DNA from: Acidimicrobiia bacterium
GTDB lineage: Bacteria; Actinomycetota; Acidimicrobiia; Acidimicrobiales; SZUA-35
Direction: 5' to 3'
Assembly (NCBI GenBank): GCA_029863385.1
Contig: JAOTVU010000002.1
Location: forward strand, 19-64,018
Length of the DNA: 64,000 nt
The notes under the pieces are model-generated. The model made no database searches and was not told the origin of the DNA. It saw nothing but the letters and a program-made list of their open reading frames with translations. A program made the position numbers and the translations under genes. Positions 18,872 to 50,713 of this stretch are shown piece after piece (position 1 is the stretch's first letter; each line of letters starts with the position of its first letter).

Positions 18872-18874
18872 CGG

Positions 18875-20338: not shown

Positions 20339-20394
20339 AACCGTACCCTGAAACCTGGGATCCGAACCATGGCCGGCGCAGTCGGCCTGCTCCC

Positions 20395-21873: not shown

Positions 21874-22048
21874 GCCACGAATCTTCCCGTCACCGGTCCC
21901 GATCGTCAAACCAGCGAAGCCTGCGGCCGTCACGACTGAGTATTTCAACTCACCGCGGGCACCGGACCGCCCGGGCACCTATCGTGGGGCGTGTCCACAT
22001 CCGGAGTGATGGTGGCGGAGGCGGGACGACCGGAAGAGGGAATCACCC

Positions 22049-23047: not shown

Positions 23048-23068
23048 CGCTCGGCCGAGCCTGCGTCG

Positions 23069-24688
23069 TCAACCCACGTCCCGGCGGGTGAACATCACCA
23101 TGCCGCCGGCGAAGGTGGCCAACCCGATGGCCGTCAGCACCACAATCGCCGTCGCGCCCTGGTCGCCGCCGGGAAGGTGGGTGACGTGGCGCAGCGGCGA
23201 CACGTTGAGCGCCATGTCCGGCAGTCGGACCAGCTCACCGAAGAGAAAGACGAACGTGGTGACGGCGAACGCCAGCCAGACGCCGAGGGTGTACTCCTTG
23301 GCCAGTCCGTAGAGCAGCACGCCGACACCGGCCACCGCCCAAAGCGCCGGAGTGCGGGCGAGCGCCGCGCCGAGCACCCCACCGACGTCGGTCATCCGAC
23401 CGGTGATCGCCCCGTCGGCCGCCACCACCGACAACCCGGCGATCACCATGAACACCGGTGCCGCCACGATCGACAGGAGGAGATGGGCACCCAACCAGCG
23501 GGTGCGGGACACATGACCGGCCAGTACCGGTTCGGCCCGGCCGGCCAACTCCTCACCCCGGGGGCGGAGCATCGACTGGATGACGCCGGCCCCGGCGATC
23601 AACGCGATCATCGACAGAATGAGCGTGAGGAACCCGTCGCGGATGGCGTCACCACTCATGCCCATCTGTTCGAGCACGTCGCGCATGGACTCCATCTCCT
23701 CGACGAACGACTCGATCTCGCTCAGCACCGACCCGTAGGTGGCACTCATGAAGGCGATGCCGATACACCACCAGGCCAGCGTCGTGCGCTGTAGCCGCCA
23801 GGCCAGCCCGAAGGCGGAGAGCAGTGACGGGGCCGCGGCCGCCGGCCCCGGTCGCTGGTCGATCAGTCCGGCGCCGACGTCACGGCGCAGGACCAGCATG
23901 ATCGCGACGCCGAACGCAGCGGCGATGGCGGCGAGGAGCACGGCGAGCGGCCAGAACACGGTGTCGCCGAACGGGTTGATGGCTTGCGACCAACCGATCG
24001 GCGAGAAGTACGACAGTCCGTTCTCCTGGACGTCCCCCACCGCACGGAGCGCGAAGGCCACGGCGATCACCGCCAGCGACGCGCCGGTGGCGGCTCGTCC
24101 GTATTCGAAGACCTGCACCCAGATCAGCGCCACGGCGGCGAACACCATCCCGCACAGCCCGAGGGCCGCGCCGAACAGGAACGACCGACCGGGATCGAGC
24201 CCGTCGGCGCTGAACACAACGGTGGTGACGAGCGCGATGAGGAGGTTGGCGGCCACGGCGACGATGCCGACGGCGGCGATCGAACTCCACGGTCCGACCG
24301 ATGCGGCCCGCACCAGCTCGGCCCGCCCCGACTCCTCCTCGGCCCTGGTGTGACGGCCGATGAGCAGCACGTTCATCAGGCCGATGATGGCAAAGGTGAA
24401 CGCCCCGATCTCGAAGGCATAGCGTCCACCGAAGGTGTCGAGGGCGTCGGGTGGTCCCTGCAAGGCCACCGAAGCCCCGCTGTTTCCGACGAGCACCGCC
24501 TGTTGGGCGAGCACCACTTCCGGGGTCACACCCTGGGTTTCGGCCTCGGTGCTGGTCACCGCCCGCAACGAGATCGGTGTGATGACGATGAGGAAACAAA
24601 CACCGATCAGCCAGAGCGAGAGTTTGATCCGGTCGAGCCGCAGGATCAGCCGGATCAGTTCTCCCGTCCGGGCGAAGCCGCTTTTCAC
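23069..24688 (-). CDS. ABC-2-type exporter permease
   Basis: 539 aa with about 12 hydrophobic segments in two halves. ATGA-type overlap with the upstream ATPase gene. Confidence 0.7.
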   Translation of the reverse strand: MKSGFARTGELIRLILRLDRIKLSLWLIGVCFLIVITPISLRAVTSTEAETQGVTPEVVLAQQAVLVGNSGASVALQGPPDALDTFGGRYAFEIGAFTFAIIGLMNVLLIGRHTRAEEESGRAELVRAASVGPWSSIAAVGIVAVAANLLIALVTTVVFSADGLDPGRSFLFGAALGLCGMVFAAVALIWVQVFEYGRAATGASLAVIAVAFALRAVGDVQENGLSYFSPIGWSQAINPFGDTVFWPLAVLLAAIAAAFGVAIMLVLRRDVGAGLIDQRPGPAAAAPSLLSAFGLAWRLQRTTLAWWCIGIAFMSATYGSVLSEIESFVEEMESMRDVLEQMGMSGDAIRDGFLTLILSMIALIAGAGVIQSMLRPRGEELAGRAEPVLAGHVSRTRWLGAHLLLSIVAAPVFMVIAGLSVVAADGAITGRMTDVGGVLGAALARTPALWAVAGVGVLLYGLAKEYTLGVWLAFAVTTFVFLFGELVRLPDMALNVSPLRHVTHLPGGDQGATAIVVLTAIGLATFAGGMVMFTRRDVG

Positions 24689-33733: not shown

Positions 33734-35430
33734 CGCTGGTCGCGGTCCCTCTCCGTGCGCCGGAACAGGTGATGCGGCTGGAGCGGATGGGGTCGCGGTT
33801 TCAGACACGGTTGAGTTTCATGCGTTCGGTGCTGCGCCGCCTCGGCGGTGACGGGTGGACGATCGAGCGGACCCGCTGTGACTGGGACGACGACGGCTAC
33901 GGCACCGCCGTCTACGCCGCCCGAGGCCCGGAGCGGACCTACAGTCTGATCGCCTACTCGGCGCACCTCGATCCGGCCGACCGGTCGGATCGGGTCATCG
34001 CCGAACGGTGGGATGCCGCGTTCACGCTGTTCGACGGTGAGCCGGCCGACGACGACATCGCCCGCCTCGCCGCCAACGTGCCCCGGCAGGAGGCGGGACG
34101 CTGTTCCAGCCGGGAGCTGACCCTCAGTCGGGCCAACCGGAGCGTGCGGCTCTTCGACCATGTCGTCGAATCACTGGCCGCCGGGCGCCAACCGGACCGG
34201 GAGCTCGTCAACCGGATCGGCTATCTCATGCGGACCACCGCTGTGTACGGCAACGGTAAGTTCGGCCTGTCCGACCGGGACCGGGTGTGCCATCGGACGG
34301 AGCTGGCCGAGCCGTACCAGGCCGAGCTGCTCACCGTCTATCTGATCCGCTGCTTCACCCACGATCTCGTCGAGCACGTGGCTCGGCGCCGCAGCCCCGA
34401 CACGTTCGTGCCGTTGGAGCGCCCGATCCGGCGTCACCTCGGAATCGGCAACGCCACCGGTCTCGGCATGGCCCCGTTCCTCCACAACCATCCGATCCTG
34501 CTCAACAACTGGGTCGTGGCGCTCGAGTCGGCGTTGGCGGTGTGCCGATCCATCGACCGGGTCGACGCCGGCGACGTGGCTCGCTTCGCCGAGCTGGTGG
34601 CGGCCGCTCGCCGGTCGGTCGCCCAGTGGAACGTCGACGACGAACGGCAGATGACCAGGATCGTCGAGTTGCGGGCGGATCTGGCCCGGCTGGAACGGGC
34701 GGTGGCGGGAGCGGACGGCGTTAGCGGCCTGCTCGACAGTGAGACGGTCCGACCGTGGGACCGCCTGTACCGGTGGGCCGAGGAGCACCTGTCGATCGAG
34801 GGCCAGGAGATGGTCGTGGCCCTGATCATCGAGCTTCACGCCGAGGTCGTCGACCACCTGGCCCCGTCGATGGTGGCCGTCGAACCGCCACTTGTCGACC
34901 CGACGATGACGGTGGCCGACCTGCTCGACCTCGTCGAGGTTCGGTACCGGTGGGCCCTCGATCTCGACTTCGACGAACCCGCCACCAGCCATTACTTCTG
35001 GTACACCTCCGAGGAGAAGCTGGAACCGAGGCTGGGGGAGCGGCGTGGCGAACCCGGGGCCGACCTCGAGCATCCGCTTGCCGTGGCACGAGACGTCGGC
35101 CGGCTTTGCGCCACACTCGCCATGGCCGATCCGCAGATCACGATGGCCGAGTTCCTCCTGCGGCGACCGGAGCATCGCCACACCGTGCGCCGGGTGCAGA
35201 CCGCGGCCCTCCACCCCTACAGCGAGATCCGCGACAACCTGATCGGTCGGGACCTGATGGCGATCGACATGCTGCGCTTCAAACTGTCGGTGTTCGGAGC
35301 CACGAAGTTCGACCCAAAGTCGGACAAATGGACCCGTATCACGATGTATCAGGGAGCGCCGCTGCCCGACGAGCTCGGTGTGTCCGACAGCGACCGGTGG
35401 ATGCTGTTGCCCCACCTCGACGGAGCGTGA
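33730..35430 (+). CDS. hypothetical protein, no domain recognised (about 553-566 aa)
   Basis: The track ORF 33289..35430 overlaps the M19 gene out of frame. GTG 33730 overlaps the M19 stop (GTGA); the alternative start is ATG 33772. High GC3 throughout. Conserved-looking blocks: YGNGKFGLSDRD, HLGIGNATGLGMAPFLHNHPILLNNW. Confidence 0.6.
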   Translation: MTLVAVPLRAPEQVMRLERMGSRFQTRLSFMRSVLRRLGGDGWTIERTRCDWDDDGYGTAVYAARGPERTYSLIAYSAHLDPADRSDRVIAERWDAAFTLFDGEPADDDIARLAANVPRQEAGRCSSRELTLSRANRSVRLFDHVVESLAAGRQPDRELVNRIGYLMRTTAVYGNGKFGLSDRDRVCHRTELAEPYQAELLTVYLIRCFTHDLVEHVARRRSPDTFVPLERPIRRHLGIGNATGLGMAPFLHNHPILLNNWVVALESALAVCRSIDRVDAGDVARFAELVAAARRSVAQWNVDDERQMTRIVELRADLARLERAVAGADGVSGLLDSETVRPWDRLYRWAEEHLSIEGQEMVVALIIELHAEVVDHLAPSMVAVEPPLVDPTMTVADLLDLVEVRYRWALDLDFDEPATSHYFWYTSEEKLEPRLGERRGEPGADLEHPLAVARDVGRLCATLAMADPQITMAEFLLRRPEHRHTVRRVQTAALHPYSEIRDNLIGRDLMAIDMLRFKLSVFGATKFDPKSDKWTRITMYQGAPLPDELGVSDSDRWMLLPHLDGA

Positions 35431-35436
35431 TCCACG

Positions 35437-36180
35437 GTGATCATGTCCCTGAACGAGATCGCCGCCACGGCGGCCAAGGCGGTTCGGGGCCGTGGCCATC
35501 CCGAGGGCATCGCCGAGGAGATGGGCTTCGCTGTCCGCTGGTTGTGTGAGCGTGAGCTTCCCGGTGTTGCGATGCTCCTGTCGGCGCTCGACAAACGATC
35601 GATGGCGGAAGCTGCCGTGATCCCTGTCATCGATCGTGCCGACGGGGTGATTCGGCTCCGGTCCACCGGCGGCGATCCGCTGCCTGCGTTGCGGGTCGCC
35701 CCCTCCATGGCGGAACTGGCGGCGGTCGAACTGGATTGGACCGACGGGACATCTGCTGATGGCTCGTCGCCACGCTCACTCGAGGTCGACTCGCTGACCC
35801 ATCCGCTGCTGCTGGTCCCGTTCGTCGCTCGTCACGGTTCGAGTCGGTTGGCCGCCCGCTGGTCGACCCCGGACGGACCGGTGGCGATGGACCGGTCCGG
35901 TGACGGGTTGCGAATTCGGGCCGGGAGCGCCTCAGCACTGGGCGCAGGCGTCGGCCACGACGTGATCCTCGGAGTCGCTCCGGACGGCCGCAACGGCCCG
36001 CCGGATGTGATGACATCCGCCGAGCTGGAGGCGGCGTCGCAACGGTCTCTCACCAGCGGTTGCGCCGTCGACACCGCCGACTGGGATCGGCTCGCACGCT
36101 GGGCACGGCGAACCTACGTGCCCGTGAGCGAGGAGTCACGCTTGCGGGGCGCCGGGGCCGGTCTCACCGACAACGACTAA
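35437..36180 (+). CDS. DUF3726-like hypothetical protein
   Basis: SLNEIAATAAKAVRGRGHPEGIAEEMGFAVRWLCERELPG at the N-terminus and YVPVSEESRLRGAGAGLTDND at the C-terminus match my recollection of DUF3726 proteins. Start is GTG 35437 or ATG 35443. Confidence 0.5.
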   Translation: MIMSLNEIAATAAKAVRGRGHPEGIAEEMGFAVRWLCERELPGVAMLLSALDKRSMAEAAVIPVIDRADGVIRLRSTGGDPLPALRVAPSMAELAAVELDWTDGTSADGSSPRSLEVDSLTHPLLLVPFVARHGSSRLAARWSTPDGPVAMDRSGDGLRIRAGSASALGAGVGHDVILGVAPDGRNGPPDVMTSAELEAASQRSLTSGCAVDTADWDRLARWARRTYVPVSEESRLRGAGAGLTDND

Positions 36181-39077: not shown

Positions 39078-39102
39078 CCCGATCGGTCGACGGGGATCAC
39101 GT

Positions 39103-39633
39103 ATGGGCTTGGTTCGATGCCGACGTTCGATGCTCGTGGCGACGGTGGTCCTCGCCTTGGCGGCCGGCTGCGGTGACGGAGGCGGAGAGGACGGCAGCGG
39201 GTCGGGTACCCGGCATGGCGCCGAGGTGGCCGAGACGAACTGTCCCGACACGACCTGGCAACGGGTCGTGGCCAGTGCGTTCTCGTTCTCGGTGCCGGCG
39301 GACTTCGTCGACCAGGCCCCGCAGGGCGTCGACTCCGAGGTCGGGCAATGGTCCGGCGACAACGGCGTCGAGGTGTTCTACGACTACGGCTGGTATTCCG
39401 GGTCGATTGCCGGCTCACCCGGTGCCGTCGTCGAACCGATCGACTACAGCGGCGTCACCGGCACCCAAACCATCGTGACCGGCGACCCCAACCAGCTGCA
39501 GGTGTTCTTCGACGAGGTCGAAGTCGTCGATGGCCAGCCCAACCTGCTGGCCCTCAACGTCAATTACGAGGCGGCGGCCGACGACGAAATCGCCCGTTGC
39601 ATCGTCGGCTCGATCGACTGGAACCTGGATTGA
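39103..39633 (+). CDS. hypothetical lipoprotein
   Basis: MGLVRCRRSMLVATVVLALAAGCGDGGGEDGSGSG has a signal plus LAAGC lipobox. 176 aa. Confidence 0.6.
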   Translation: MGLVRCRRSMLVATVVLALAAGCGDGGGEDGSGSGTRHGAEVAETNCPDTTWQRVVASAFSFSVPADFVDQAPQGVDSEVGQWSGDNGVEVFYDYGWYSGSIAGSPGAVVEPIDYSGVTGTQTIVTGDPNQLQVFFDEVEVVDGQPNLLALNVNYEAAADDEIARCIVGSIDWNLD

Positions 39634-39652
39634 GGCGGCGGTCGGCAGCACC

Positions 39653-40849
39653 ATGACTCCCGTTCAGCTGGTGGAACTCCCCACCCCCACATATCACACG
39701 GAGCTGCGTGACTTCCTCACCGCCACCGAGCCCGAGCTGTGGCGGTGGTTCGCCGAGTCGAAGCAACTCAGCGCCCGAAGCGACGACGAGGCCGAACTCG
39801 AACTGCTGAAGTCGGCCATTCGGCTCGACGGGGGCGTGCACGATGTGCTGGTGGCCCACGCCACCCTACTGCGGGACGCGTTCGCCATCACCGAACCCGT
39901 GGCCCTCTATCAGGAGCTCGGTTCGAGCGAACGCAACGCCCACGTGTTCCGACTCAACGGGCAGGTCAACGTCGTGTTCGGCGGTGATCTGCTCGAACTG
40001 CTGGAACCGTCGGAGCAGCAGGTGATCCTCGCTCACGAGCTGGCCCACATCGCCTTGTGGCGCCGGTCCGATCGAGATTTCGAAGTGCTCGACCAGATGA
40101 TCCACCGGCTCGCCTCCGATCCGGGAGCCGACGACACCGTGATCGAGACGGCCCGCCGGCTGCGTCTCCACACCGAGGTCTGGGCCGACGCAGCGGCCGT
40201 TGCGGTGCTTGACGATCTCGAGACCTCAGTGGCGGCCATGGTGAAGGTCGGCTCGGGCCTCCGCCACGTCGATCCGGCGGCCTATCTCCGCCAAGCCGAG
40301 GACATCCTCGCCCTCGACTCCCGGGCCACAACCGCCTGGACCCATCCGGAACTCCACATCCGCGTGGCCTGCCTGGCGGCGTGCCAGGTGGCCGGGCAAC
40401 GGCACGCCGTCGAGGGCGTGCTGGCCACCCTGATCAACGGGCCCGACGATCTCGATCGACTCGACCTCCTCGGTCAGCGACGGTTGCGGACGTTGGCGGC
40501 CCGGGTGCTGGCCACGGCCACCGGCTCATCGGCCTCCGACACGGTGACGGACTACCTGGCCCACTATGTGGACCTTGCGGCAGACCGGGCCGATGGGGCC
40601 GAAGAGGGCAAACCGGTCGGCAACGGCGAGCTGGCCGAATTGTCGCCATCGGTGCGGTGGTTTGCGGCGTCGCTGCTCGTCGACCTTGCTCTGGTCGACG
40701 ACGAGGTCGATGACCTGGCCGACCTACGGGCCATGTCGGCCGAAGCCGAGCGGCAGGGGGTGGCCGAGGAGTTCGACAAGATCCTGGCCAGAGCCACCGA
40801 GCAGACCCGGTCCGAAGTGGCCGCACTTCGAGCGGACACCACGCCGTGA
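39653..40849 (+). CDS. soluble HExxH/ExxAD (M48-like gluzincin) metalloprotease-like protein
   Basis: ATG 39653. HELAH at 40034..40048 and EVWAD at 40175..40189. No hydrophobic TM segments. The helical, acidic C-terminal half is of unknown type. The stop overlaps the downstream GTG (GTGA, 40846..40849). Confidence 0.6.
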   Translation: MTPVQLVELPTPTYHTELRDFLTATEPELWRWFAESKQLSARSDDEAELELLKSAIRLDGGVHDVLVAHATLLRDAFAITEPVALYQELGSSERNAHVFRLNGQVNVVFGGDLLELLEPSEQQVILAHELAHIALWRRSDRDFEVLDQMIHRLASDPGADDTVIETARRLRLHTEVWADAAAVAVLDDLETSVAAMVKVGSGLRHVDPAAYLRQAEDILALDSRATTAWTHPELHIRVACLAACQVAGQRHAVEGVLATLINGPDDLDRLDLLGQRRLRTLAARVLATATGSSASDTVTDYLAHYVDLAADRADGAEEGKPVGNGELAELSPSVRWFAASLLVDLALVDDEVDDLADLRAMSAEAERQGVAEEFDKILARATEQTRSEVAALRADTTP

Positions 40850-43800
40850 CGTTCGCCCGGCTGCTGAGCGAGGCCACCGCGTCGGGCAGTCTGCCCCGCA
40901 CCGGCGACGTGCTGGCCGTCGGGCTCCCGCTGCTGCGCCAGATCGACCGGCTCCACCGTCAGGGTCTGGTCACCGGGGCGTCCGGGGTGTCTGCCGTCTC
41001 CTACGACGGTCGGGTGGTCAGCGTGACCAGCTCCCAGTCGGCCACCGAGCAGAACAACCGGCGGGCCGTCGACGCGATCGCCGCCCGGGCCGAGCAGGCC
41101 GGCGTGGCTGTCGCCGCCCATCGCCACATCGATCTCGACGCCGGCCCTGACAGCGCCGGTCCGTGGGGATCGGTCCGCAGCGAGGACGTGTTCGATCCCG
41201 GCGATCCGGCGTCGCCGCCCCACCCCGATCGGTCGATGTTCGTCGTCGGCTACCGGGCCTGGGAGCAGTTGCTCGGCCATCACGATCAGCTGACCGACGT
41301 GCACCTCGCCGGTCTCTGGCTGTGCAGCTACGCCTTCGGCCTCGATCTCGCCACGCCCGAGGGGATCGACGAGCTGGCTCTCCATCACCGCCACCCCCGC
41401 CGGCTGAACCCCGATCTGCATCCCGTGGTCCTGAACGTCTTGACCGACATGGTGCAGCCGATCCGGGCCAGGCGCCCGACCGATCTCGCTCATGTGGTCG
41501 CCCGTCTCGAACACCACCGGGATCTGCCCACTGACCTCGACCTCGGTCCTGCCTACGAGCCCCACGTCGACTGGCGACGCCAGGTCCTCACCATCCTGCG
41601 GGACCGGGTGTTCGACACGACCCGCCGCAATCGCCAGCTGTACTTCCGTCCGACCGGGTCCAGCGTGTCGCTCACCGAGGCGTCGGTGCCCCTGATGCTC
41701 AACGTCGACCGGATCAAGGCCGACGATCTGCTGACCTGGACCGATCCGAGCAACCGCCGCCTGCGTAGCGGCAAGTCGGTGGACCTGGCCCGGTGGTGCC
41801 GGTTCGAGGAGACCCCGTATCTGGCCCCGACGCTGAACAAGCTGATATCGGCCGAGCGGAAGGTACGGCTGGAGACCGGCCACAGCCGGCTCCGCCTCAT
41901 CGTCGCCTTCCTGCATTGGCTCGACCCGGAGACCGACGAGACGATCTCCTCGCCCCTGCTTCTGATGCCGGCCGAGCTGACCCGCAGGAAAGGGGTCACG
42001 GTTCGCTACCAGCTCGAGACCGACACCGAAGAGGCCACGGTCAACCCGATCCTGCGCCACGTGTTCAAGAGCCGCTTCGACATAGCGCTGCCGACCACGG
42101 TTGGGGCCGGGCCCGACGAGGTGGCCGGGTTCGTCGCCGATCTGGAGCGCCAGGTGCAGCGGACCGCGCCCGAGGTGTCGATCGAGCTCGTCGACAAACC
42201 CCGCATCGAGCTGCTGCGGCGCCAGGCCCGGTTACGGGTCGACAACTACCGTCGCCGCCGGGCCAAGACGCTGGCGACCTCCGGGCGATGGCGCCGTCAG
42301 GAGCACTCCTACGATCACGACGACTGGCGGCCGCTGGGCCTCGCGCTGTATCAGCGGTTCGTGCAGGCCTCCGAGCTGCCGATGCGGGAACTGGCCGGCG
42401 CCGCGCCCCGTCCTCGACGGCAGTCGGCCGTTGACCACGGGGTCCGGTCGGGTCCTGGTGTCGGGGCCGGGCCTGAACTCGGGCAGCGGACGAGCACCAC
42501 CTACAGCAGCCAGATGGCCGACGTGTCGGCCGAGCGGTGGGAGGTCGACCTCTGTTCGGTGACGCTGGCCATGCTCGGTTCCCGGCGAACCAGCCTGGCC
42601 CGCGACTACGACGAGGTGCTCGGCCGGTCCGCGATCGATACCACCGCGGCGCCGTTCACGGGTCCGTTCGAGGCGCTGTTCAGCCCGCATCGGTCGGCTC
42701 CGGTCGCAGCGTCGGCGGCGCCGACCGAGCCGCTGTCGCTGGCACAACGGATCGTGTTGCCGGCCGACGACGCCCAGGCTCGGGCCATGCAGCGGGCGGT
42801 GCGGGGTGATTCGTTCATCATCCAGGGCCCGCCGGGGACCGGCAAGAGCCAGACCATCACAAATGTGATCGCCGCGCTCGTCGCCGAGGGCAAGCGGGTG
42901 TTGTTCGTCTGCGAGAAGCGGGCGGCGATCGACGTTGTCGCCCAGCGGCTGCGCCAGGTCGGCCTCGGCGAGTTGACGGCCACCATCCACGACTCACAAC
43001 TCGACCGCAAGCAGTTCGTGAAGGAATTGGGCGCCACCTACCACCGGTGGCTGGAGGACGGCGTGGACGTCGATGCGGACGCCGCCGGCAACGGCGACGG
43101 CTCGGTGCGTGCCGATCCCGAGCAGCGGCGGGCCGAAATGCTGGCCGAGGCCGACCGGGTCACCCGACCGCTGGAGGCGATGACGGCCGAGCTCGGTCGC
43201 CCCGTGGACGATCGGATGCCGGTTGGGGAGGCGGTCGAGAGGCTGGCGCTGCTGGCCGCCTCCGACTCCGGGTCCGATGACCGGCCGCCCTCGACCGACG
43301 GGCATTCGGCCGCGGTGATGTCGGTCGAGGGCTTGTCGTCACAGCGGTGGCTCAGGCTCCGTCCGGCTCTCGATCGGGTGGCCGACCTGCTCTCGTCGGC
43401 GGGACCGCTCCGGGCTCTCGGTGAGCATGACCCGCTGCGGATCCGGCCGTCGGTGATCGCCGGCGGCGACGTTATCGCTGCCTGCCGACAGGTCGGGGGT
43501 GAACTCAGGGCGGCTGCTGAGGAGGTGATGGCCTCGCCGGGGTCGGCCATGGTCGGCGACGGGGACATCGGCGGTGCCCTTGCCTCCATGACCCGGGCCG
43601 AGCTCGACACCGTGGCTGATTTCGCCCCGGCGATCCGGGCCGTCCTCTCCGCCGGTTCGACCGCTGTCGCCGCCCTCGATCCTCGGTCACCGGCCCATCT
43701 CGATCTGCGGGCGGCCGCCGGGGAGCTGCAGGATCGCCGAGCCGCGGCCGCGTCGACGGCTGAGGTCCTCGACCGCTGGTCGGCGCCGCTCGGCCCCGCC

Positions 43801-46170
43801 GACACCGCCACCGGTCTGGCGCTGGCCCGGGCGAAGGAGGGATCGCTGTTCGCGTTCCTGAACGGGCGCTGGCGTTCACTGAAGCGGCTGGTGGTCGAGT
43901 CGTACCGGTTCGATCAGCACCAGGTTCCGCCGACGGTCACCGACGTGTTGACCGAGCTTGCCGCCCACCACGAAGCCAACGCCGCCGTGATGGCCGTCGA
44001 ACAGGAGGGGCTGCAACGCTACGGCACGGCCGACATCGCCGAGCTGCGTGACGTCGTCGATCGTCACCACGCCAGTCCGGCCTTCCGGTACTGCCTGGCC
44101 GCCGGCCCGGCGGTCGGCAACGCGCTCCAGCGGTTGTCCCGACTATCGGCCGCGGCGTCGGCCGTGCTCGTGGGGGAGCGGGCGACCACCGCCGATCTGG
44201 CCGCCATCGGTCGGAGCCTCGAGGGCACACCGGTGGCGATCGAGCCCGCTCTGGTCGGCTGGTCGGCCATCGCCGTCGAGCACGAACCCGACCTGACCAT
44301 CGTCCTCGACGCCGACGCATCCCTCGATGGCATCGAGGCCGCCGTCATCCGCCGCGAACTCGACGCCTGGGCCGCCACGATCGACCATGCATCGTTCACC
44401 GGGGCCCGACTCGACGAGGCCGTGGACCGGTTGGCCGGGATCCACCGTGCTCTACTCGACGCGAACGCCGCCGTGGCCCTGTCGAGGGCCCGGCGGACGT
44501 TCCTCGACCACGTCGCCCACTCGGAGGCGTCGATGGCGGGTCGCAGCGACGACGACAAGGCCCGCAAGAAGACCTACAACGCGGGCCGCCGGATCGTCGA
44601 GCGGGAGTACGACAAGAAGATGCGGTTCCGGTCGATCCGCGAGATGTCGAGTGGCGACAGCGGGGTGGTGGTGCGGGATCTGCGGCCGATCTGGCTGATG
44701 AGCCCGTTGTCGGTGTCCGACACCCTGCCGCTCACCGAGGCCCACTTCGATGCGGTGATCTTCGACGAGGCCAGTCAGATCCCGGTGGAGGACGCCGTGC
44801 CGACGGTTTTCCGGGCCCCGCAGGTCATCGTGGTCGGCGACCGGATGCAGATGCCGCCGACCCGGTTCTTCTCGTCAACCGACGACGACGAGTCCGATGT
44901 GATCGTGGACGACGAGGGGTTCCGCCTGTCGATCACCCTCGACGCCGACAGTTTCCTGACCCAGGCCGATCAGGCTCTCGACTCGGCCCTGCTGAACTGG
45001 CACTACCGCTCCCGATCGGAGTCGCTGATCGCCTACAGCAACCACGCTTTCTATCAGGGGCGGCTGGCCACGGTGCCCGACACCGCTCCCGGGTCCGCGG
45101 TTCGGCCGTCGATCATGGTGTCCGGTATCGATGGTCCCGATGGTGGCGTCGGGTTCGGCGTCGCTGAACTGCTCGCCCGCCCGATCTCCCATCACTTCTG
45201 TGAGCACGGCGAGTATCGGGATCGGCGCAACGGGCCGGAGGCCGATTACGTGGCCGAGCTGGTCCGCGGGCTGCTGCGACGAAACGGTGGCGAGCGGGGC
45301 GGGCCCACGATCGGTGTCGTGGCCTTCTCCGAGGCCCAGCAGTCGGCCATCGAGGACTCGCTCGACGAGCTGGCCACCATCGACTCGGATTTCGCCGAAC
45401 GCTACGAGCGGGAGCTGACCCGCACCGACGACGACGAGTTCGTCGGGCTCTTCGTCAAGAACCTCGAGAACGTCCAGGGCGACGAGCGCGACATCATCAT
45501 CATGAGCGTGTGTTACGGGCCGGCCTCCGACGGGCGGATCAAGATGAACTTCGGCCCGATCAACAACGCGGGCGGTGAGCGACGGCTGAACGTGATCTTC
45601 AGCCGGGCAAAGCGGCATATGGCGGTGGTGGCGTCGATGCGAGGGTCCGACGTCACCAACGTGCACAACGAAGGGGCCAATCATCTCGCCGGGTTCCTCC
45701 GCTACGCGGAAGCCGAGAGCGTCGGCGATCAGGCCACGGCCCAGGCCATCCTCGACGCCCAGGTCGCCGACCTCGACGGCGGCGGTCCGGCGGCCGCCCG
45801 ATCGGCATCGCCGGTGGCCGAGCAGGTGGCGGCGGCGTTGCGTCAGCGGGGCTTGTCGGCCGAGATCTCGGTAGGCCGTTCATCCTTCCGCATCGACGTT
45901 GCCGTGTCGGCCGCAGCAGATGGACCGGCCGCCGCCGATGGATCGGCCGGTGCCCCCGACTCGGCCGGCGGTGACGGCTCTGCTGCAACCGATCGCCGGC
46001 TTGGCCTCCTGCTCGAACCGACGCCGGGTTCGTCGGTCCACGCCCGCTTCGTGGCCGAGGCCGGGGTGCTCGATGCGTTCGGTTGGCGCATCCTGCGGGT
46101 CCCGCTGAGTGACTGGTACGCCGACCCGGCCCGGGTCGTCGACCGCATCGCAACCGCCCTCGGCCCGTAA
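40846..46170 (+). CDS. 1774-aa multidomain SF1 helicase: kinase-C-lobe-like N-terminus, DUF4011-type region, AAA_11/AAA_12 (Upf1/DNA2-like) helicase, Vsr/DUF559-like C-terminus
   Basis: Walker A IIQGPPGTGKSQT (~42823), motif II VIFDEASQ (~44761), VVGDRMQMPP, LNWHYRSRSESLIAY, GVVAFSEAQQ, VQGDERDIIIMS, GGERRLNVIFSRAKRHM. DUF4011-like NRQLYFRPTGSSVSL...LRLIVAFLHWLDPE...SPLLLMPAELTRRKG. The C-terminal part (GRSSFRIDVAV...LGLLLEP...GWRILRVPLSDW) resembles restriction-endonuclease/Vsr-like modules. Confidence 0.85.
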   Translation: MTFARLLSEATASGSLPRTGDVLAVGLPLLRQIDRLHRQGLVTGASGVSAVSYDGRVVSVTSSQSATEQNNRRAVDAIAARAEQAGVAVAAHRHIDLDAGPDSAGPWGSVRSEDVFDPGDPASPPHPDRSMFVVGYRAWEQLLGHHDQLTDVHLAGLWLCSYAFGLDLATPEGIDELALHHRHPRRLNPDLHPVVLNVLTDMVQPIRARRPTDLAHVVARLEHHRDLPTDLDLGPAYEPHVDWRRQVLTILRDRVFDTTRRNRQLYFRPTGSSVSLTEASVPLMLNVDRIKADDLLTWTDPSNRRLRSGKSVDLARWCRFEETPYLAPTLNKLISAERKVRLETGHSRLRLIVAFLHWLDPETDETISSPLLLMPAELTRRKGVTVRYQLETDTEEATVNPILRHVFKSRFDIALPTTVGAGPDEVAGFVADLERQVQRTAPEVSIELVDKPRIELLRRQARLRVDNYRRRRAKTLATSGRWRRQEHSYDHDDWRPLGLALYQRFVQASELPMRELAGAAPRPRRQSAVDHGVRSGPGVGAGPELGQRTSTTYSSQMADVSAERWEVDLCSVTLAMLGSRRTSLARDYDEVLGRSAIDTTAAPFTGPFEALFSPHRSAPVAASAAPTEPLSLAQRIVLPADDAQARAMQRAVRGDSFIIQGPPGTGKSQTITNVIAALVAEGKRVLFVCEKRAAIDVVAQRLRQVGLGELTATIHDSQLDRKQFVKELGATYHRWLEDGVDVDADAAGNGDGSVRADPEQRRAEMLAEADRVTRPLEAMTAELGRPVDDRMPVGEAVERLALLAASDSGSDDRPPSTDGHSAAVMSVEGLSSQRWLRLRPALDRVADLLSSAGPLRALGEHDPLRIRPSVIAGGDVIAACRQVGGELRAAAEEVMASPGSAMVGDGDIGGALASMTRAELDTVADFAPAIRAVLSAGSTAVAALDPRSPAHLDLRAAAGELQDRRAAAASTAEVLDRWSAPLGPADTATGLALARAKEGSLFAFLNGRWRSLKRLVVESYRFDQHQVPPTVTDVLTELAAHHEANAAVMAVEQEGLQRYGTADIAELRDVVDRHHASPAFRYCLAAGPAVGNALQRLSRLSAAASAVLVGERATTADLAAIGRSLEGTPVAIEPALVGWSAIAVEHEPDLTIVLDADASLDGIEAAVIRRELDAWAATIDHASFTGARLDEAVDRLAGIHRALLDANAAVALSRARRTFLDHVAHSEASMAGRSDDDKARKKTYNAGRRIVEREYDKKMRFRSIREMSSGDSGVVVRDLRPIWLMSPLSVSDTLPLTEAHFDAVIFDEASQIPVEDAVPTVFRAPQVIVVGDRMQMPPTRFFSSTDDDESDVIVDDEGFRLSITLDADSFLTQADQALDSALLNWHYRSRSESLIAYSNHAFYQGRLATVPDTAPGSAVRPSIMVSGIDGPDGGVGFGVAELLARPISHHFCEHGEYRDRRNGPEADYVAELVRGLLRRNGGERGGPTIGVVAFSEAQQSAIEDSLDELATIDSDFAERYERELTRTDDDEFVGLFVKNLENVQGDERDIIIMSVCYGPASDGRIKMNFGPINNAGGERRLNVIFSRAKRHMAVVASMRGSDVTNVHNEGANHLAGFLRYAEAESVGDQATAQAILDAQVADLDGGGPAAARSASPVAEQVAAALRQRGLSAEISVGRSSFRIDVAVSAAADGPAAADGSAGAPDSAGGDGSAATDRRLGLLLEPTPGSSVHARFVAEAGVLDAFGWRILRVPLSDWYADPARVVDRIATALGP

Positions 46171-46514
46171 TCTCTGGCCAGGACCCCGGAACCTCGGCCG
46201 CAACGTCGTCCCGCCACGCCGAAACAGGGGGGACGAGGGCTCTGACGCACCAAGACACGAGTCGCTGGCTTGCCCGACGCCGCGCCCGTGCTGCGCGCCA
46301 TGAAACGATCAACGTTCGTAGAGGCTCGGTCATGGACATGCTCGGCTTCCCGATGTTGCGCCTTGGTCACCGCTGACCGTCTCGGAACCTGTTCAAGACC
46401 TACCGGGTCGAGCTCCCCGCTCGTCACGTTCTGTCGTTCACGGACGAAGCTGCTACCTGCTGACCAGGGCCGGGGCCAGCCGGCCGATCCAGCAGGCGCG
46501 CCCCGCCCGGTCGG

Positions 46515-48122
46515 CTACTGGTAGCTGACGTAGACCGGTTGGGGGTCGACGGCGAGGGTTTGGGCGGGGGTGGCCATCGGGGCGTCCTCGTCGTAGAAGT
46601 TCTTCCAACCCCAGCGCCAGTGGCCGTCCTCCGTCCCACGGACCAGCGCGGCAAGTGTGCCGTACTTGGTGCCGAGCGGACCCTGGCCGTCCATCTGGAT
46701 CACGACCGACAGCTCCGGCCTCTCCTCGATGGCGGATCGGTTGGTCACCATCGACAGGTTGAACTGGTGGATCAGCAGCATCTTCTGGGGCAGGGCGTGT
46801 TGACGCACCAGGTCGGCCAGCCAGGCCGACACCTCGTTGATCTCGGCGGCGTCGACCGAACCGAGCTGGCGGAGGTGCCGCTGATCAGGGGCGAGTCGCC
46901 ACTCGGGGTCGAGGGCCAAGCCGACGTGGGGCTGGGTCAGCAACTCCTCATACCGTTTGGCCTGGGTCAGGAAGTCGGTGCGACCGGGTTGGAGATCGAG
47001 CAGCACGTAGACGCCGTTCTCCGCCGCGTGGTCGACGTAGGGACGGAGAGCGGCCACCGGGGTCTCGTTGGAGTAGTCGCCGTCGTCGCCGGCATCGGCG
47101 GCGGCGACGGTGGCGATCAACTCGAAGGTGGGGACCACAACGACCCCGTCATCGGTCTGATACTCGGTGAGCAGGGGTTGCATGCGGTCGAGGGTGGCCG
47201 CCGGATCCTGCTCGCCCAGCACGCCGAGCAGCGACGTGCCGGGCGCTCCGTAGAACGCGATGTAGCGTTTGTCCGGCCCGATCGTCAGGCCTCCCCCCGG
47301 CAATTCGGTCCCCGACCGGAGCGCCCCGAGCTGCCAGACGTCGGTGGCGGAGAACGAGCCGATGAGCTGCATTGATTCGGCCGCCCGCAGCCGGTCGACG
47401 ACCTCAGCGGCGATCTCGAACCAGTCGGGCGCCGTTGTCGACCCGGCCCGCGCGCCGAGTTCGACCACCGCGGCCCGGGCACGGGTGGCGGCCGGTGCCA
47501 GAAGGGCGGCCAGGTCCGGATCGGCCCCGTCGAGCGACCACAACACCGAGCCGTCGCCGTCAGGTGGAATCGGTGGCTGGGCCATGGGGTCGGCGGGTTG
47601 TTCGGTGAACTCCCAATCGCCGGTCAACGTCGCCGAGGTCGCCGGAGGGGCGCCGACGAGGAGTACCTCCTCGGGGGCGAGGCGGTTGAGTTCCGCCAGG
47701 AGCTGCGGATCGGGTTCGTCACCGGCCAGGAGGTACACAGCGTCGCTGTCGATCGCCGCCTGAGCGGCGGTCCAGCGGGCGGCCGGGTCGGTCCCGGCGA
47801 GCACCACCCGATCGGCGCAGGTGTTCAGCCGTCGACTGAGCTCGATCACGATCGTCGCCGGATCGGTGGCCGCGATGGGTTCGGTCGAGGTCGGAGGCTG
47901 GGGCGAGCAGTCCCTCGGCACTTCCGTCGAGCTGATGACGTTGCCGTCGGCTGCGTCGGCATCGGTCGAGTCGGCGGCCCCGAGCAGGGCCGACACGATG
48001 TCGTCGCCGTAGGCGACGGCCAGTATCGTCAGCGCTCCCGCCGACACCGACAACGCCAGTGCGAGCGCGACGAACCGAAACAGCGAACGGGTTCGCCCTC
48101 GGTTTTGTGTTCGCGCGACCAA
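46515..48122 (-). CDS. secreted/membrane-anchored hypothetical protein
   Basis: N-terminal anchor FRFVALALALSVSAGALTILAV. The C-terminal ~280 aa (YVLLDLQPGRTDFL...LIHQF...WGWKNFYDED...VYVSYQ) looks like a conserved actinobacterial extracellular domain, possibly a glycoside-hydrolase-like barrel. Function not recognised. Confidence 0.6.
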   Translation of the reverse strand: MVARTQNRGRTRSLFRFVALALALSVSAGALTILAVAYGDDIVSALLGAADSTDADAADGNVISSTEVPRDCSPQPPTSTEPIAATDPATIVIELSRRLNTCADRVVLAGTDPAARWTAAQAAIDSDAVYLLAGDEPDPQLLAELNRLAPEEVLLVGAPPATSATLTGDWEFTEQPADPMAQPPIPPDGDGSVLWSLDGADPDLAALLAPAATRARAAVVELGARAGSTTAPDWFEIAAEVVDRLRAAESMQLIGSFSATDVWQLGALRSGTELPGGGLTIGPDKRYIAFYGAPGTSLLGVLGEQDPAATLDRMQPLLTEYQTDDGVVVVPTFELIATVAAADAGDDGDYSNETPVAALRPYVDHAAENGVYVLLDLQPGRTDFLTQAKRYEELLTQPHVGLALDPEWRLAPDQRHLRQLGSVDAAEINEVSAWLADLVRQHALPQKMLLIHQFNLSMVTNRSAIEERPELSVVIQMDGQGPLGTKYGTLAALVRGTEDGHWRWGWKNFYDEDAPMATPAQTLAVDPQPVYVSYQ

Positions 48123-48246
48123 AGATTTCCTCCGCCAATGGATCCGAAGACGTCGCGACCCGCCTTGTCAGCCGAACCCTAGCAGTCCGGGTCGCAACCG
48201 CGCGGTCGCCCGAGAAGTCGCCACAAGGTTGGACGAATCCGCTCGT

Positions 48247-49644
48247 CTACGAATCAGTGCCCAGGGACGCGACGAGCTCCGACGCCGTCGCGCCGGGTGT
48301 GCCGGCCGCCGCCCGGATCGCTGCTGCGGCCGCCGGTGGATCGGGAAACAGGCCGCCGGTCACCCGGGCGAACTTGGCGTCGATCTGCGAAGCGGTCAGC
48401 GGTGCGTGCATCGAGCCGATCTGGCCGTGCACGGTCCGTTCCCGGACCGAGCCGTCGTCGAGGGTGATCCGAACCCGTCCGCCCATCTTCCAGGCGTAGG
48501 TGGCGTCGAACTCGGGGTGGGCGGTGACGCCGACCACCTTCGACTGAAGGGCTGCGATGGCCGGGTCGATGATGCGGTCCGGGGCGTAGGTGGCCGGGTC
48601 GCCGGGATCGGTGACGAGGGCCGCCGCGATGTTCCACTGGGCCGAGTACTGGGCGGCCATGACCGAGGTCGTGCCGTCGAGACTGTTCTGCTCGGCTGCC
48701 TTGGTCGGACCCTCGGCCTCGATCTTCGTGATGCGATCGACCGGGAGGCTGTCGGGCCCCGTTTCGTGGCGCAACTCGGTCGCGGCCTGGATCATGGGGT
48801 GGATGTCGCTGCATGCGGCGTAGGGCTTGACGGTGATCTCGTCGATCATCCATCGTTCACCCAGACTCTTGGTCAGCAACTCGACCCGGGGGGCGTCGGT
48901 GAAGACCCGGCAGAACCCGTACCGGCCGGCCAATCCGTCGTTTGCACCCTCGAACCCACCGACCGCCAGCAGCGCCGCGGTCACACCGCCCTCGGCGGCT
49001 CGCCCGGCATGCACCCGCTTGGCCATGCCACCGGACGCGGCGAACTCCATCGTGCCCGACGCGAACGTGGTCGCGATCCCGAACGCGTGGTTGAGGAGCG
49101 CTGCGTCGAACCCGAGGAGCCGTCCCGCTGCGGCGGCCGCGCCGAAGACACCTGACATCGACGTCGGGTGGAAGCCACCCAGCATGTGAGCGGCCGGACC
49201 GACGGCGATTCCCGCCCGTCCCATCGCCTCGTAGCCGATGACGATGGCCTCCAGTACATCGGCCGCCGTGGCATCGACCGATTGACCGACCGCCAACGCC
49301 GCCGGGACCACCACCGCTCCGGGATGGCTGATGGCCTCCTCGTGCACGTCGTCGAGTTCGAACGCATGGGCGGAGGCTCCGTTGGCGAGCGCGGCCATGG
49401 CGGGGGTGGTCGACGCCGCCGGATCGGATCCGACCACGGTGCACGGTCCGTCGGCGCCGGTGGCCAGGGCGTGACCGATCACCGCCTGCGACCACGGTTG
49501 CTGTGAACCGAACACGATGCAGCCGAGCGTGTCGACCAGATAGTCGGTGGCCGAAGCGGTGAGCCGGCCGTCGATGACGCCGGCAAGGCCGGTCAGGAAC
49601 TCGGCCAGTTCCCGGGAGGCCGTCGTCGCAGGGCTTTCAGGCAT
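48247..49644 (-). CDS. MmgE/PrpD family protein (2-methylcitrate dehydratase-like)
   Basis: 465 aa with the typical MmgE/PrpD N-terminus (ELAEFLTGL...DTLGCIVFG) and length. Overlaps the upstream Rieske gene by 8 nt. Confidence 0.8.
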   Translation of the reverse strand: MPESPATTASRELAEFLTGLAGVIDGRLTASATDYLVDTLGCIVFGSQQPWSQAVIGHALATGADGPCTVVGSDPAASTTPAMAALANGASAHAFELDDVHEEAISHPGAVVVPAALAVGQSVDATAADVLEAIVIGYEAMGRAGIAVGPAAHMLGGFHPTSMSGVFGAAAAAGRLLGFDAALLNHAFGIATTFASGTMEFAASGGMAKRVHAGRAAEGGVTAALLAVGGFEGANDGLAGRYGFCRVFTDAPRVELLTKSLGERWMIDEITVKPYAACSDIHPMIQAATELRHETGPDSLPVDRITKIEAEGPTKAAEQNSLDGTTSVMAAQYSAQWNIAAALVTDPGDPATYAPDRIIDPAIAALQSKVVGVTAHPEFDATYAWKMGGRVRITLDDGSVRERTVHGQIGSMHAPLTASQIDAKFARVTGGLFPDPPAAAAAIRAAAGTPGATASELVASLGTDS

Positions 49645-50713
49645 CGCCGAGTGCGGCCAAGGCCAGCGCCTGCAGATGGGGGACGGCGTTCTCGTGGTGG
49701 ACGTCGGCGGTACCGCTCGGATCGACGACGAGCGGCCCCGGTCGGTAGCCCCGACTCGACATGTTGTGCTGCACCGACTCCATCAGGTCGAAGTCCTCGG
49801 CCACCGTCGTCGTCCAGTCGAGTTCGATCGCTTTGCGTTGCTCATCGGTCGGCTCGGGTTGGTCGAACCACCACTCCCGGATCAACAGAGTGCGATCGAC
49901 CGCCAGCGGCACCCAGCGAAACGTGTTGAGGATCCGGCCCGGGTAGCACTGGATCGACGACACCGGCCACACGAAGAACGATCCATAGCCCGTGTCGTCC
50001 TCGTCGAGTTCATAGGGGCGACGGTCCGGCGGCGCCGCGGAGGCGGTGTGCCAGATCGTCTGCCCCTTCGGGGTGATGAGAAAGGTCTTCGGGTCGATCA
50101 CCCCGGTGGTGAACGAGCGGTGCACGTTGGGGCAGTGGTAACACTCGTTGTAGTTCTCGATCGCCAGTTTCCAGTTGGCGTTGAACTCATGCGTCAGGCG
50201 GGCCGTCAGCACCCGCTGCGGGGCCGCCGGGGCCAGGTCCAAGAGCGCCGCCTCGACCTCCGGGGCGGTGTCGGCCAGCGAGGCGGCGTCGGGATCAAGA
50301 TTCACGAAGACATACCCGGCGAGGATGTCGACCCGTACCTGCGGAACGCAGATGTCGCCGAGTGCGGAGGCCGGCAGACGCCGGGCCTTGAGGAGCCGTC
50401 CCGACAGGTCGTAGAGCCAGGCGTGATAGGGACACGAGATGTCGTCCATCGTGGCCCGATCCTCCAGAACCAGTTGGTGGCCCCGGTGCTGGCAGACGTT
50501 GTAGAAGGCGGTCAGCCCGGTGCCGTCGTTGGCCACCACGATCCGTTCCCGACCGACGGTGGCCGTGATCAGATCTCCTGCCCCGGCCAGTTGGGAGATG
50601 TGGCCGACCATCTGCCAGGTCCGGGCGAACACCACGTCGAGTTCGGTTTCGAAGATCGCCGGGTCGGTGTAGTAGCGACCGTCGATCGCCCGCCTGCCGG
50701 TCTCCGTCGTCAT
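49637..50713 (-). CDS. Rieske [2Fe-2S] non-heme-iron oxygenase, alpha subunit-like
   Basis: Start at ATG 50713 (ATGA overlap with the upstream gene). Rieske motifs CQHRGHQL...CPYHAW. The C-terminal catalytic domain has NYNECYHCPNVH. Confidence 0.85.
   Translation of the reverse strand: MTTETGRRAIDGRYYTDPAIFETELDVVFARTWQMVGHISQLAGAGDLITATVGRERIVVANDGTGLTAFYNVCQHRGHQLVLEDRATMDDISCPYHAWLYDLSGRLLKARRLPASALGDICVPQVRVDILAGYVFVNLDPDAASLADTAPEVEAALLDLAPAAPQRVLTARLTHEFNANWKLAIENYNECYHCPNVHRSFTTGVIDPKTFLITPKGQTIWHTASAAPPDRRPYELDEDDTGYGSFFVWPVSSIQCYPGRILNTFRWVPLAVDRTLLIREWWFDQPEPTDEQRKAIELDWTTTVAEDFDLMESVQHNMSSRGYRPGPLVVDPSGTADVHHENAVPHLQALALAALGDA

Follow-up and report, generated by a model that had tools for sequence, protein, structure and literature searches.

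A co-translated zinc metalloprotease and helicase-nuclease gene pair: an accessory cassette and candidate defence system in Acidimicrobiia and other bacteria

In a 64,000-nucleotide stretch of contig JAOTVU010000002.1 from an Acidimicrobiia bacterium (assembly GCA_029863385.1), hereafter the window, two overlapping genes encode a protein that we read as a soluble M48-like zinc metalloprotease (gene A) and a multidomain predicted helicase-nuclease (gene B). A and B are translationally coupled, near-exclusive partners that co-evolve without the need of a third gene, and the pair spans at least seven bacterial phyla. Sequence comparison places B in the superfamily of DUF4011 / superfamily 1 (SF1) helicase / Vsr-nuclease proteins together with Hhe, ProA and PDC-S37, and the pair is most likely an undescribed relative of the known anti-phage helicase systems. 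To the Hhe/ProA/PDC-S37 chassis the pair adds a dedicated M48-like protease and a predicted dead kinase lobe, a combination that we did not find in the resources queried. A role of the pair in defence, as suggested by the initial annotation of the locus, is a candidate function that is weighed below against several alternatives.

The gene pair and its distribution

The two genes and the features of their products are as follows:

39653-40849, plus strand: gene A, ATG start, 398 aa; predicted soluble M48-like zinc metalloprotease, its zincin core at the N-terminus being followed by an all-helical domain
40034-40048, plus strand: HELAH zinc-binding and catalytic motif of A, residues 128-132 (His128, Glu129, His132)
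40172-40189, plus strand: TEVWAD of A, containing Asp179 and Glu175, the latter predicted to be the third zinc ligand of a gluzincin
40846-46170, plus strand: gene B, GTG start, 1774 aa; predicted multidomain helicase-nuclease whose start codon overlaps the stop codon of A
40846-41595, plus strand: protein-kinase C-lobe-like domain of B, residues 1-250, assigned by Foldseek and predicted to be catalytically dead
41611-42060, plus strand: DUF4011 region of B, residues 256-405 (Pfam PF13195, 48.6-52.4 bits)
42826-42849, plus strand: Walker A motif GPPGTGKS of the Upf1-like SF1 helicase of B, residues 661-668, with AAA_11 and AAA_19 matches
43018-44565, plus strand: about 520 aa inserted into the helicase core of B, separating its Walker A part from its Walker B part; no domain assignable
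44764-44778, plus strand: Walker B / motif II DEASQ of B, residues 1307-1311, invariant
44977-45639, plus strand: helicase domain 2A of B (AAA_12), residues 1378-1598
45571-45594, plus strand: arginine-finger region GGERRLNV of B, inside domain 2A
45793-46167, plus strand: predicted Vsr-like restriction-endonuclease-fold domain of B, MTES_1575 type (PF18741)

A scan of species-representative genomes with an alignment of the helicase recovered 80 loci, about 42 of which matched over the full length, in Verrucomicrobiota, Planctomycetota, Bacteroidota, Alpha-, Beta- and Gammaproteobacteria, Actinomycetota and Victivallales. The protease gene lies immediately upstream of the full-length helicase in 38 of these 42 loci, and none was found beside helicases with a C-terminal match alone (Hhe/DUF3320-type). 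Seen from the protease, in those metagenome loci whose sequence continues for at least 400 nt downstream, the N-terminus of the helicase follows immediately in 59 cases out of 60. The overlap of the stop codon of A with the start codon of B (GTGA at 40846-40849), which had been taken from the start to imply co-translation, is kept as NTGA in 28/38 loci, and the pairwise identities of A and of B are strongly correlated (r = 0.92, 33 loci). The co-occurrence and co-variation that the initial annotation had proposed as a check on the partnership are thus both observed. A third component was sought by all-against-all clustering of the open reading frames (ORFs) flanking 47 loci, which revealed no other common family; the other large clusters consisted of shadow ORFs within the helicase gene. 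Chance adjacency of two unrelated genes in one genome, for which nothing speaks beyond the weakness of the Pfam M48 match of A (see below), is refuted by the reciprocal co-occurrence in about 100 independent loci, the conserved overlap and the co-evolution, and we give it practically no credence.

Four helicases retain the kinase-like N-terminus with no protease within 8 kb: three from Chitinophaga (L016, L024 and L043) and L021. Their upstream genes encode ATP-binding cassette (ABC) and major facilitator superfamily (MFS) transporters, a TonB receptor and isocitrate dehydrogenase, none of which qualified as an alternative partner. These natural loci with B alone would be useful for comparison, and they bear on the possibility that the pair is a toxin-antitoxin-like addiction cassette without benefit to the host, in which a toxic B would be restrained by A, through cleavage or sequestration, and the cassette stabilised as a result. 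Such a cassette could explain why a small gene precedes a large one with a conserved 4-nt overlap leading to coupled synthesis, why the partnership is near-obligatory when seen from the protease and why the unit moves between unrelated sites with no recognisable transposase. However, the four loci show that the helicase is tolerated alone, full catalytic sites are kept in both proteins across deep divergence, and the whole cassette is cleanly lost in close relatives (see below), so that we regard addiction as improbable.

One further locus, L020 (WNWL01000003.1, labelled Oceanobacillus sp. HTM 045), has a G+C content of 72%, which is incompatible with Oceanobacillus. This assembly is probably mislabelled or contaminated, and Bacillota should therefore not be counted among the hosts of the pair.

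Predicted architecture of the two proteins

The description of A as a protein of 398 aa with HELAH at 40034-40048 and the glutamate of EVWAD 43 residues further on was verified to the nucleotide: Glu175 stands 43 residues beyond His132. The sole Pfam match of A is Peptidase_M48 (PF01435; 25.9 bits, cut-off 20.3), and it covers about 45 residues around HExxH, corresponding to profile positions 32-77 only. H128, E129, H132, E175 and D179 do not vary among 57 homologues, nor among 33 loci of several phyla. AlphaFold models A with high confidence (predicted local distance difference test, pLDDT, 91.5; predicted template-modelling score, pTM, 0.90) as a soluble fold in which a three-stranded sheet and helices surround HExxH and are followed by an all-helical C-terminal half. 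In keeping with the soluble character proposed at the outset, no transmembrane segment was found in A, the highest Kyte-Doolittle mean over 19 residues being 1.42. The best fold matches in the PDB are BepA, ZMPSTE24, Ste24, BlaR1, HtpX, selecase and SPRTN, all of them zincins and all weak (E of at least 0.017); the M48 members BepA, ZMPSTE24, Ste24 and HtpX rank top, with E values of 0.017-0.44, and a profile built from the 57 homologues gave a single match, again weak, to HtpX (E = 0.06). Sequence searches with A in PADLOC, NCBIfam and the PDB gave no match, and no viral fold match was significant.

The concern that profile searches might assign A to a non-protease fold was not borne out, since the core is predicted to be of the M48/minigluzincin type and its catalytic residues are invariant. 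From the sequence and the structural model together, we read A as an active, cytoplasmic M48-like gluzincin that also has a helical domain. A resembles the M48 peptidases (HtpX, Ste24/ZMPSTE24, BepA) in having HExxH and a downstream Glu and in scoring above the Pfam gathering threshold; it differs from them in that it would be soluble and cytoplasmic, in being dedicated to a helicase partner and in carrying a C-terminal helical domain without assignment. The A family comprises 387 clusters at 50% identity (E <= 1e-30, among 1.84 billion representatives), nearly all of about 400 aa.

The SF1 Upf1-like motifs, the DUF4011 region and the Vsr-like tail first noticed in B from the sequence alone were all recovered as Pfam matches and invariant motifs: DUF4011 (residues 256-405), AAA_11, AAA_19 and AAA_30 around the Walker A motif (from residue 641), AAA_12 (1378-1598) and the MTES_1575 restriction-endonuclease (REase) tail. 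Against a cut-off of 38.2, the REase tail scores 40.8 bits if scanned alone and 34.9 bits as part of the whole protein. GPPGTGKS, DEASQ and the GGERRLNV arginine-finger region are invariant in 14 divergent homologues; in the tail, D1684 is invariant and an acidic residue at position 1724 and a GW motif are conserved. The C-terminal domain is a predicted Vsr-like nuclease fold with putative catalytic activity. The insertion of about 520 aa has no significant Pfam match and aligns solely to positions 651-1074 of the ProA profile. Sequence matches of the helicase in the PDB are IGHMBP2, Upf1, Sen1, Dna2 and a 5'-3' RNA-helicase-like protein.

Among solved structures, the helicase cores nearest in sequence (IGHMBP2, Upf1, Sen1 and the 5'-3' RNA-helicase-like protein) raise the possibility of RNA or ribonucleoprotein quality control, in which an Upf1-like RNA helicase would work with a protease that clears stalled protein complexes; the match of the Mokosh MkoA and MkoC models to B points the same way. 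However, Dna2 is also among the helicase matches, the C-terminal domain of B has a DNA-endonuclease fold and the accessory distribution of the pair (see below) speaks against a housekeeping function. We consider this explanation quite improbable.

At the N-terminus of B, residues 1-250 match nothing in profile searches of Pfam, NCBIfam, PADLOC or the PDB. In the AlphaFold model of residues 1-600 (pLDDT 76.8, reaching 80-94 over most of residues 1-60 and 110-220), a Foldseek search of the PDB returned protein kinases, AMPK, PknB and Wee1/Myt1 among them, as 50 of the top 50 matches (E from 1.4e-4, probability ~1, about 225-245 aligned columns). Among the invariant positions, W139-E140, D151-x4-G156 and R225 are counterparts of the structural kinase residues of APE, DxWxxG and subdomain XI, and B has TGA after LH37..G40.V42, where HRD is expected; these correspondences come from a comparison of the sequence with canonical motifs from general knowledge, not from residue-level superposition. 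HRD, DFG and an N-lobe are all absent from the N-terminus, the protein beginning at the helix before the catalytic-loop position, and because of these three absences we predict that the N-terminus is a catalytically dead, protein-kinase C-lobe-like domain. The kinase-like character initially assigned to this region therefore stands as a matter of fold, but it is limited to a C-lobe devoid of catalytic residues and finds no sequence-profile match. Homology of B to the ProA, Hhe and PDC-S37 models begins at DUF4011, and by this comparison the kinase-like domain is specific to the B clade.

Some of the helicases (Citromicrobium L083, Ralstonia L086 and many metagenome sequences) have an extra WGR domain (PF05406), which seems to be placed C-terminally, after the nuclease tail. 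WGR domains occur in DNA-break-sensing proteins, e.g. PARP.

An accessory cassette

The window and two related loci, L081 and L082, whose helicases are 68% and 76% identical to B, respectively, have a common gene order: M19 peptidase, 560-aa protein, DUF3726, luciferase-like protein, the pair, PrpD, Rieske protein and aminotransferase. Taken alone, this order would suggest housekeeping synteny; relatives were therefore sought with the 560-aa protein as an anchor. Two loci recovered in this way, L167 and L168, have the gene order of the window with the pair absent. The DNA identity of the luciferase gene to that of the window allows the four loci to be compared:

L167: pair absent, 86.0%
L082: pair present, 85.5%
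L168: pair absent, 84.9%
L081: pair present, 82.7%

L167 and L168 are as close to the window as the carrier L082 and share its gene order without the pair, which is therefore an accessory unit, gained or lost as one, and not a housekeeping locus. The condition under which the proposal of a dedicated module would have failed, namely a helicase usually found solo in conserved housekeeping synteny, is contradicted both by the 38 paired loci out of 42 and by these two empty sites. The boundaries of the cassette and its immediate neighbour are:

39103-39633: small lipoprotein gene with the lipobox LAAGC, separated from A by a 19-nt gap
39637-46505, plus strand: accessory cassette; L167, syntenic on both sides, lacks exactly this segment (blastn)
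39639-39646, plus strand: left 8-bp direct repeat CGGTCGGC, cassette boundary
46508-46515, plus strand: right 8-bp direct repeat CGGTCGGC, cassette boundary

In the blastn comparison, window 39480-39636 corresponds to L167 13642-13798 and window 46506-49800 to L167 13799-17084, so that the two flanks are contiguous in L167 and what is missing is precisely the two genes and the 335 nt of non-coding DNA that follow B. L168 lacks 39078-46513. The empty site of L167 holds a single diverged copy of the repeat (CGACCGC). The CGGTCGGC repeat is suggestive of a target-site duplication or of the trace of a microhomology-mediated deletion, an 8-mer in DNA of 68% G+C being short enough to recur by chance. 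Within the window, whose G+C content is 68%, whose named homologues point to Acidimicrobiia close to Ilumatobacter and where the genes around the pair are metabolic, we found no tRNA gene and no long flanking direct or inverted repeats as signatures of mobility, and no promoter-like or terminator-like consensus sites.

Unit-wise gain and loss is also seen outside the Acidimicrobiia. Of 136 Ralstonia megaplasmids, 12-14 carry the pair; in strains without it, the flank homology begins immediately past the helicase stop codon. In R. syzygii, the match is limited to a 6.8-kb cassette (91.9%) at a different site, and the Citromicrobium copy adjoins an integrase and a DUF3987 gene. More generally, the flanks of the pair differ from phylum to phylum.

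Two neighbours were considered as possible further members and rejected. The initial annotation had suggested that the small lipoprotein gene may be on the same transcript as the pair; the gene exists, with its 19-nt gap and LAAGC lipobox, but it is not a member of the module, being absent from L081, L168 and all distant loci. It is itself variable: full length in the window and in L082, a shortened remnant in L167. In Ralstonia, a functional link to uvrA was discarded, since the giant uvrA is kept in about 120 Ralstonia/Burkholderia records without the pair. This unusually long uvrA paralogue (1945 aa; L086 17684-23521, Ralstonia CP047139) adjoins the cassette; megaplasmids of Ralstonia, Burkholderia and Mycetohabitans keep it regardless of the pair.

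The 335 nt of non-coding DNA 3' of the B stop codon (46171-46505) lie inside the cassette. They are not conserved in L081 and L082, where the corresponding spacers are much shorter, and could be a remnant, a terminator or a small RNA.

Relation to known systems and candidate function

B was compared with the models of named systems, with the following scores:

NCBIfam ProA (NF058533, 'anti-phage protein ProA'): 594.9 bits, curated cut-off 1500
NCBIfam Hhe (NF042953): 415.6 bits, curated cut-off 2000
PADLOC PDC-S37: 581.5 bits, in 3 stretches of the 1550-position model, no cut-off
PADLOC Hhe (PDLC02194): 290.6 bits, no cut-off
PADLOC MkoA: 101 bits, no cut-off

Five other members of the clade also fall below both NCBIfam cut-offs (ProA 629-688 bits, Hhe 431-457 bits). 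ProA, which could be compared by its profile alone, is the best-scoring named family, with homology running from DUF4011 to the helicase core and including part of the large insertion; it differs in that the match starts at position 456, leaving about 450 profile positions before DUF4011 that the kinase-like domain of B does not match, and in that NCBIfam has no model matching protease A. Hhe and B share the chassis of DUF4011, Upf1-like SF1 helicase (AAA_11/AAA_12) and Vsr-like nuclease, but Hhe is a single-gene system, whereas the B clade has a dedicated protease partner and another N-terminal module. PDC-S37, the best PADLOC match, is likewise a single-gene candidate; its DUF4011 lies near profile position 99, which leaves no room for a kinase-like domain, and PADLOC has no model for protease A either. 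As for Mokosh, MkoA and MkoC match B in the helicase core alone (101 and 77 bits), and neither A nor B has a PLD domain. The early view that the pair belongs to no named system thus agrees with these comparisons: B lies under the ProA and Hhe cut-offs, A is without PADLOC or NCBIfam match and the first 250 residues of B are without counterpart in ProA, Hhe or PDC-S37. In our literature search, neither ProA nor PDC-S37 nor a pair of M48 and DUF4011 proteins was found to be described, which does not prove that the pair is unpublished.

The nearest precedent comes from the giant MTES_1575-type proteins, which combine HEPN, a transglutaminase-like peptidase, an SF-I helicase, a Vsr REase and a winged helix-turn-helix (wHTH) domain (Anantharaman et al. 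2013, PMC3710099). For these proteins a part in modification-independent defence was predicted, in which cleavage of proteins would form an extra line (PMC3710099). Here too a helicase/Vsr-REase chassis is associated with a peptidase; however, theirs is a fused cysteine peptidase of the transglutaminase fold accompanied by a HEPN RNase, whereas the pair has a separate zinc metalloprotease, no HEPN and a kinase-like lobe at the N-terminus. Hachiman offers a working analogy, not a homology: HamAB is described as a two-gene system whose helicase senses the state of nucleic acids and controls a partner effector (PMC10925250). HamB is an SF2 helicase and HamA a nuclease, while the pair joins its nuclease and an SF1 helicase in one protein and has a protease as the other component.

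We propose that the pair is a new two-gene relative of the Hhe/ProA-type conflict systems, providing nucleic-acid-triggered defence with the protease as a switch or as a second effector, a proposal whose chances we judge to be evenly balanced. The cassette would then be a self-contained, horizontally mobile nucleic-acid-sensing conflict system, directed against phages or against mobile elements. A and B may form a complex, in which B, driven by ATP, would translocate on foreign or aberrant nucleic acid, or remodel it, and its C-terminal nuclease would cut the nucleic acid that is being tracked. The dead kinase lobe could serve as a protein-docking or sensing surface. As a switch, A would cleave B and thereby activate or inactivate it; alternatively, as a second effector, A would degrade proteins that sit on the nucleic acid along which B moves. 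The proposal is suggested by the following: (i), the nearest named families of B are antiphage (ProA, Hhe, PDC-S37 and MkoA); (ii), the distribution of the pair is patchy and accessory, with gain and loss as a unit; and (iii), the zincin site of A, the SF1 ATPase site of B and the acidic residues of its tail are all kept. A more specific version, a protease-gated helicase-nuclease immune system in which the lobe is a bait or dock and stalling of B on foreign or damaged nucleic acid leads A either to cleave B, so that its nuclease is switched on, or to degrade the proteins bound there, is tentative, and we think it unlikely.

Several observations weigh against a defence function. The initial annotation had asked whether the pair sits in defence islands elsewhere; among 234 flanking proteins from 30 loci, counted with no formal background control, it is not enriched beside defence genes. 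These flanking proteins are mostly transporters, two-component regulators and metabolic enzymes, with MFS transporters, two-component systems, 3-deoxy-D-arabino-heptulosonate 7-phosphate (DAHP) synthases and tRNA synthetases as housekeeping examples. The PADLOC matches among them amount to a type XIII retron with its SWIM partner, a PD-T4-6-like kinase and a few Lhr/DpdF/BrxH-like helicases, with generic helicases accounting for most of the matches. No copy of the pair was found in IMG/VR contigs or GenBank phages. B also lies far under the curated cut-offs of ProA and Hhe, and some DUF4011 proteins are core, as exemplified by the flank of the cDHS1 hotspot in P. aeruginosa (PMC10250203). Finally, the G+C content of the pair tracks that of each host (0.33-0.72), and the Acidimicrobiia homologues form a graded series of 46-85% identity, which together suggest long residence and not rapid turnover.

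The main rival to the defence proposal is genome maintenance, in which the helicase-nuclease would recognise stalled or protein-blocked DNA, for instance at DNA-protein crosslinks or trapped enzymes, and A would degrade the adduct, as eukaryotic SPRTN/Wss1 do with helicases. In this alternative reading, the pair would be the first dedicated bacterial pairing of a DNA-protein-crosslink-removing protease with a helicase. Weak SprT-like (PF10263) matches occur in some protease homologues, and SPRTN and viral SprT-like proteins are among the weak fold matches of A, but this similarity is not significant and is confined to the HExxH core. The C-terminal WGR domain of some members of the B family, the long residence of the pair in Acidimicrobiia and a neighbourhood that is mostly housekeeping, with occasional Lhr-type repair helicases, would also suit a repair function. 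On the other hand, close relatives can do without the pair and are polymorphic for it, which is unusual for core repair; its adjacency to uvrA in Ralstonia is coincidental, as that uvrA is kept in strains without the pair; and every named relative of B is an antiphage protein. We therefore hold genome maintenance to be doubtful, if the most serious of the alternatives.

To the DUF4011 helicase-nucleases (Hhe, ProA and related candidates), the B clade adds a dedicated, co-translated zinc protease and a predicted dead kinase lobe. The pair is well defined, in that its protease falls into about 390 clusters at 50% identity, its hosts belong to at least seven phyla and the boundaries of the cassette are clean; it is also found in culturable hosts (Ralstonia solanacearum phylotype II Po82 and UY031, Lysobacter antibioticus, Citromicrobium, Nocardioides and Cupriavidus necator). 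PADLOC v2 and NCBIfam r20 miss the protease partner entirely. If the protease of the proposed defence system is indeed a switch or effector, proteolytic control would extend to a large superfamily of helicase-based conflict systems; protease-gated sensing or execution, if true, would be a mode undescribed for any Hhe/ProA-type system.

Some loci of the pair contain other genes worth recording. The type XIII retron reverse transcriptase (E = 1.9e-130) and the SWIM partner (E = 1.1e-143) were found among the flanks of L001-L046, and we assume that they share one locus. In L085 (Acidimicrobiia), the pair is found near a 1536-aa protein with HIT, PLD and DEAD/ResIII helicase domains and a dynamin-like GTPase (16318-20928 and 21903-23606), which could be another conflict system.

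In the window, positions 46515-48122 (minus strand) encode a 535-aa protein without Pfam match, which is conserved at this place in L082, L167 and L168; L081 has instead a gene resembling non-ribosomal peptide synthetases (NRPS), with AMP-binding, PP-binding and thioesterase domains. On the other side of the pair, the protein of about 560 aa used as an anchor (33742-35430, plus strand) has no Pfam domain and is always preceded by the M19 dipeptidase and followed by the DUF3726 protein, whose gene lies at 35437-36180 (plus strand). Its homologues number at least 8000 at E <= 1e-30, some of them from Alpha- and Gammaproteobacteria, and together with DUF3726 it is a very widespread uncharacterised conserved gene pair.

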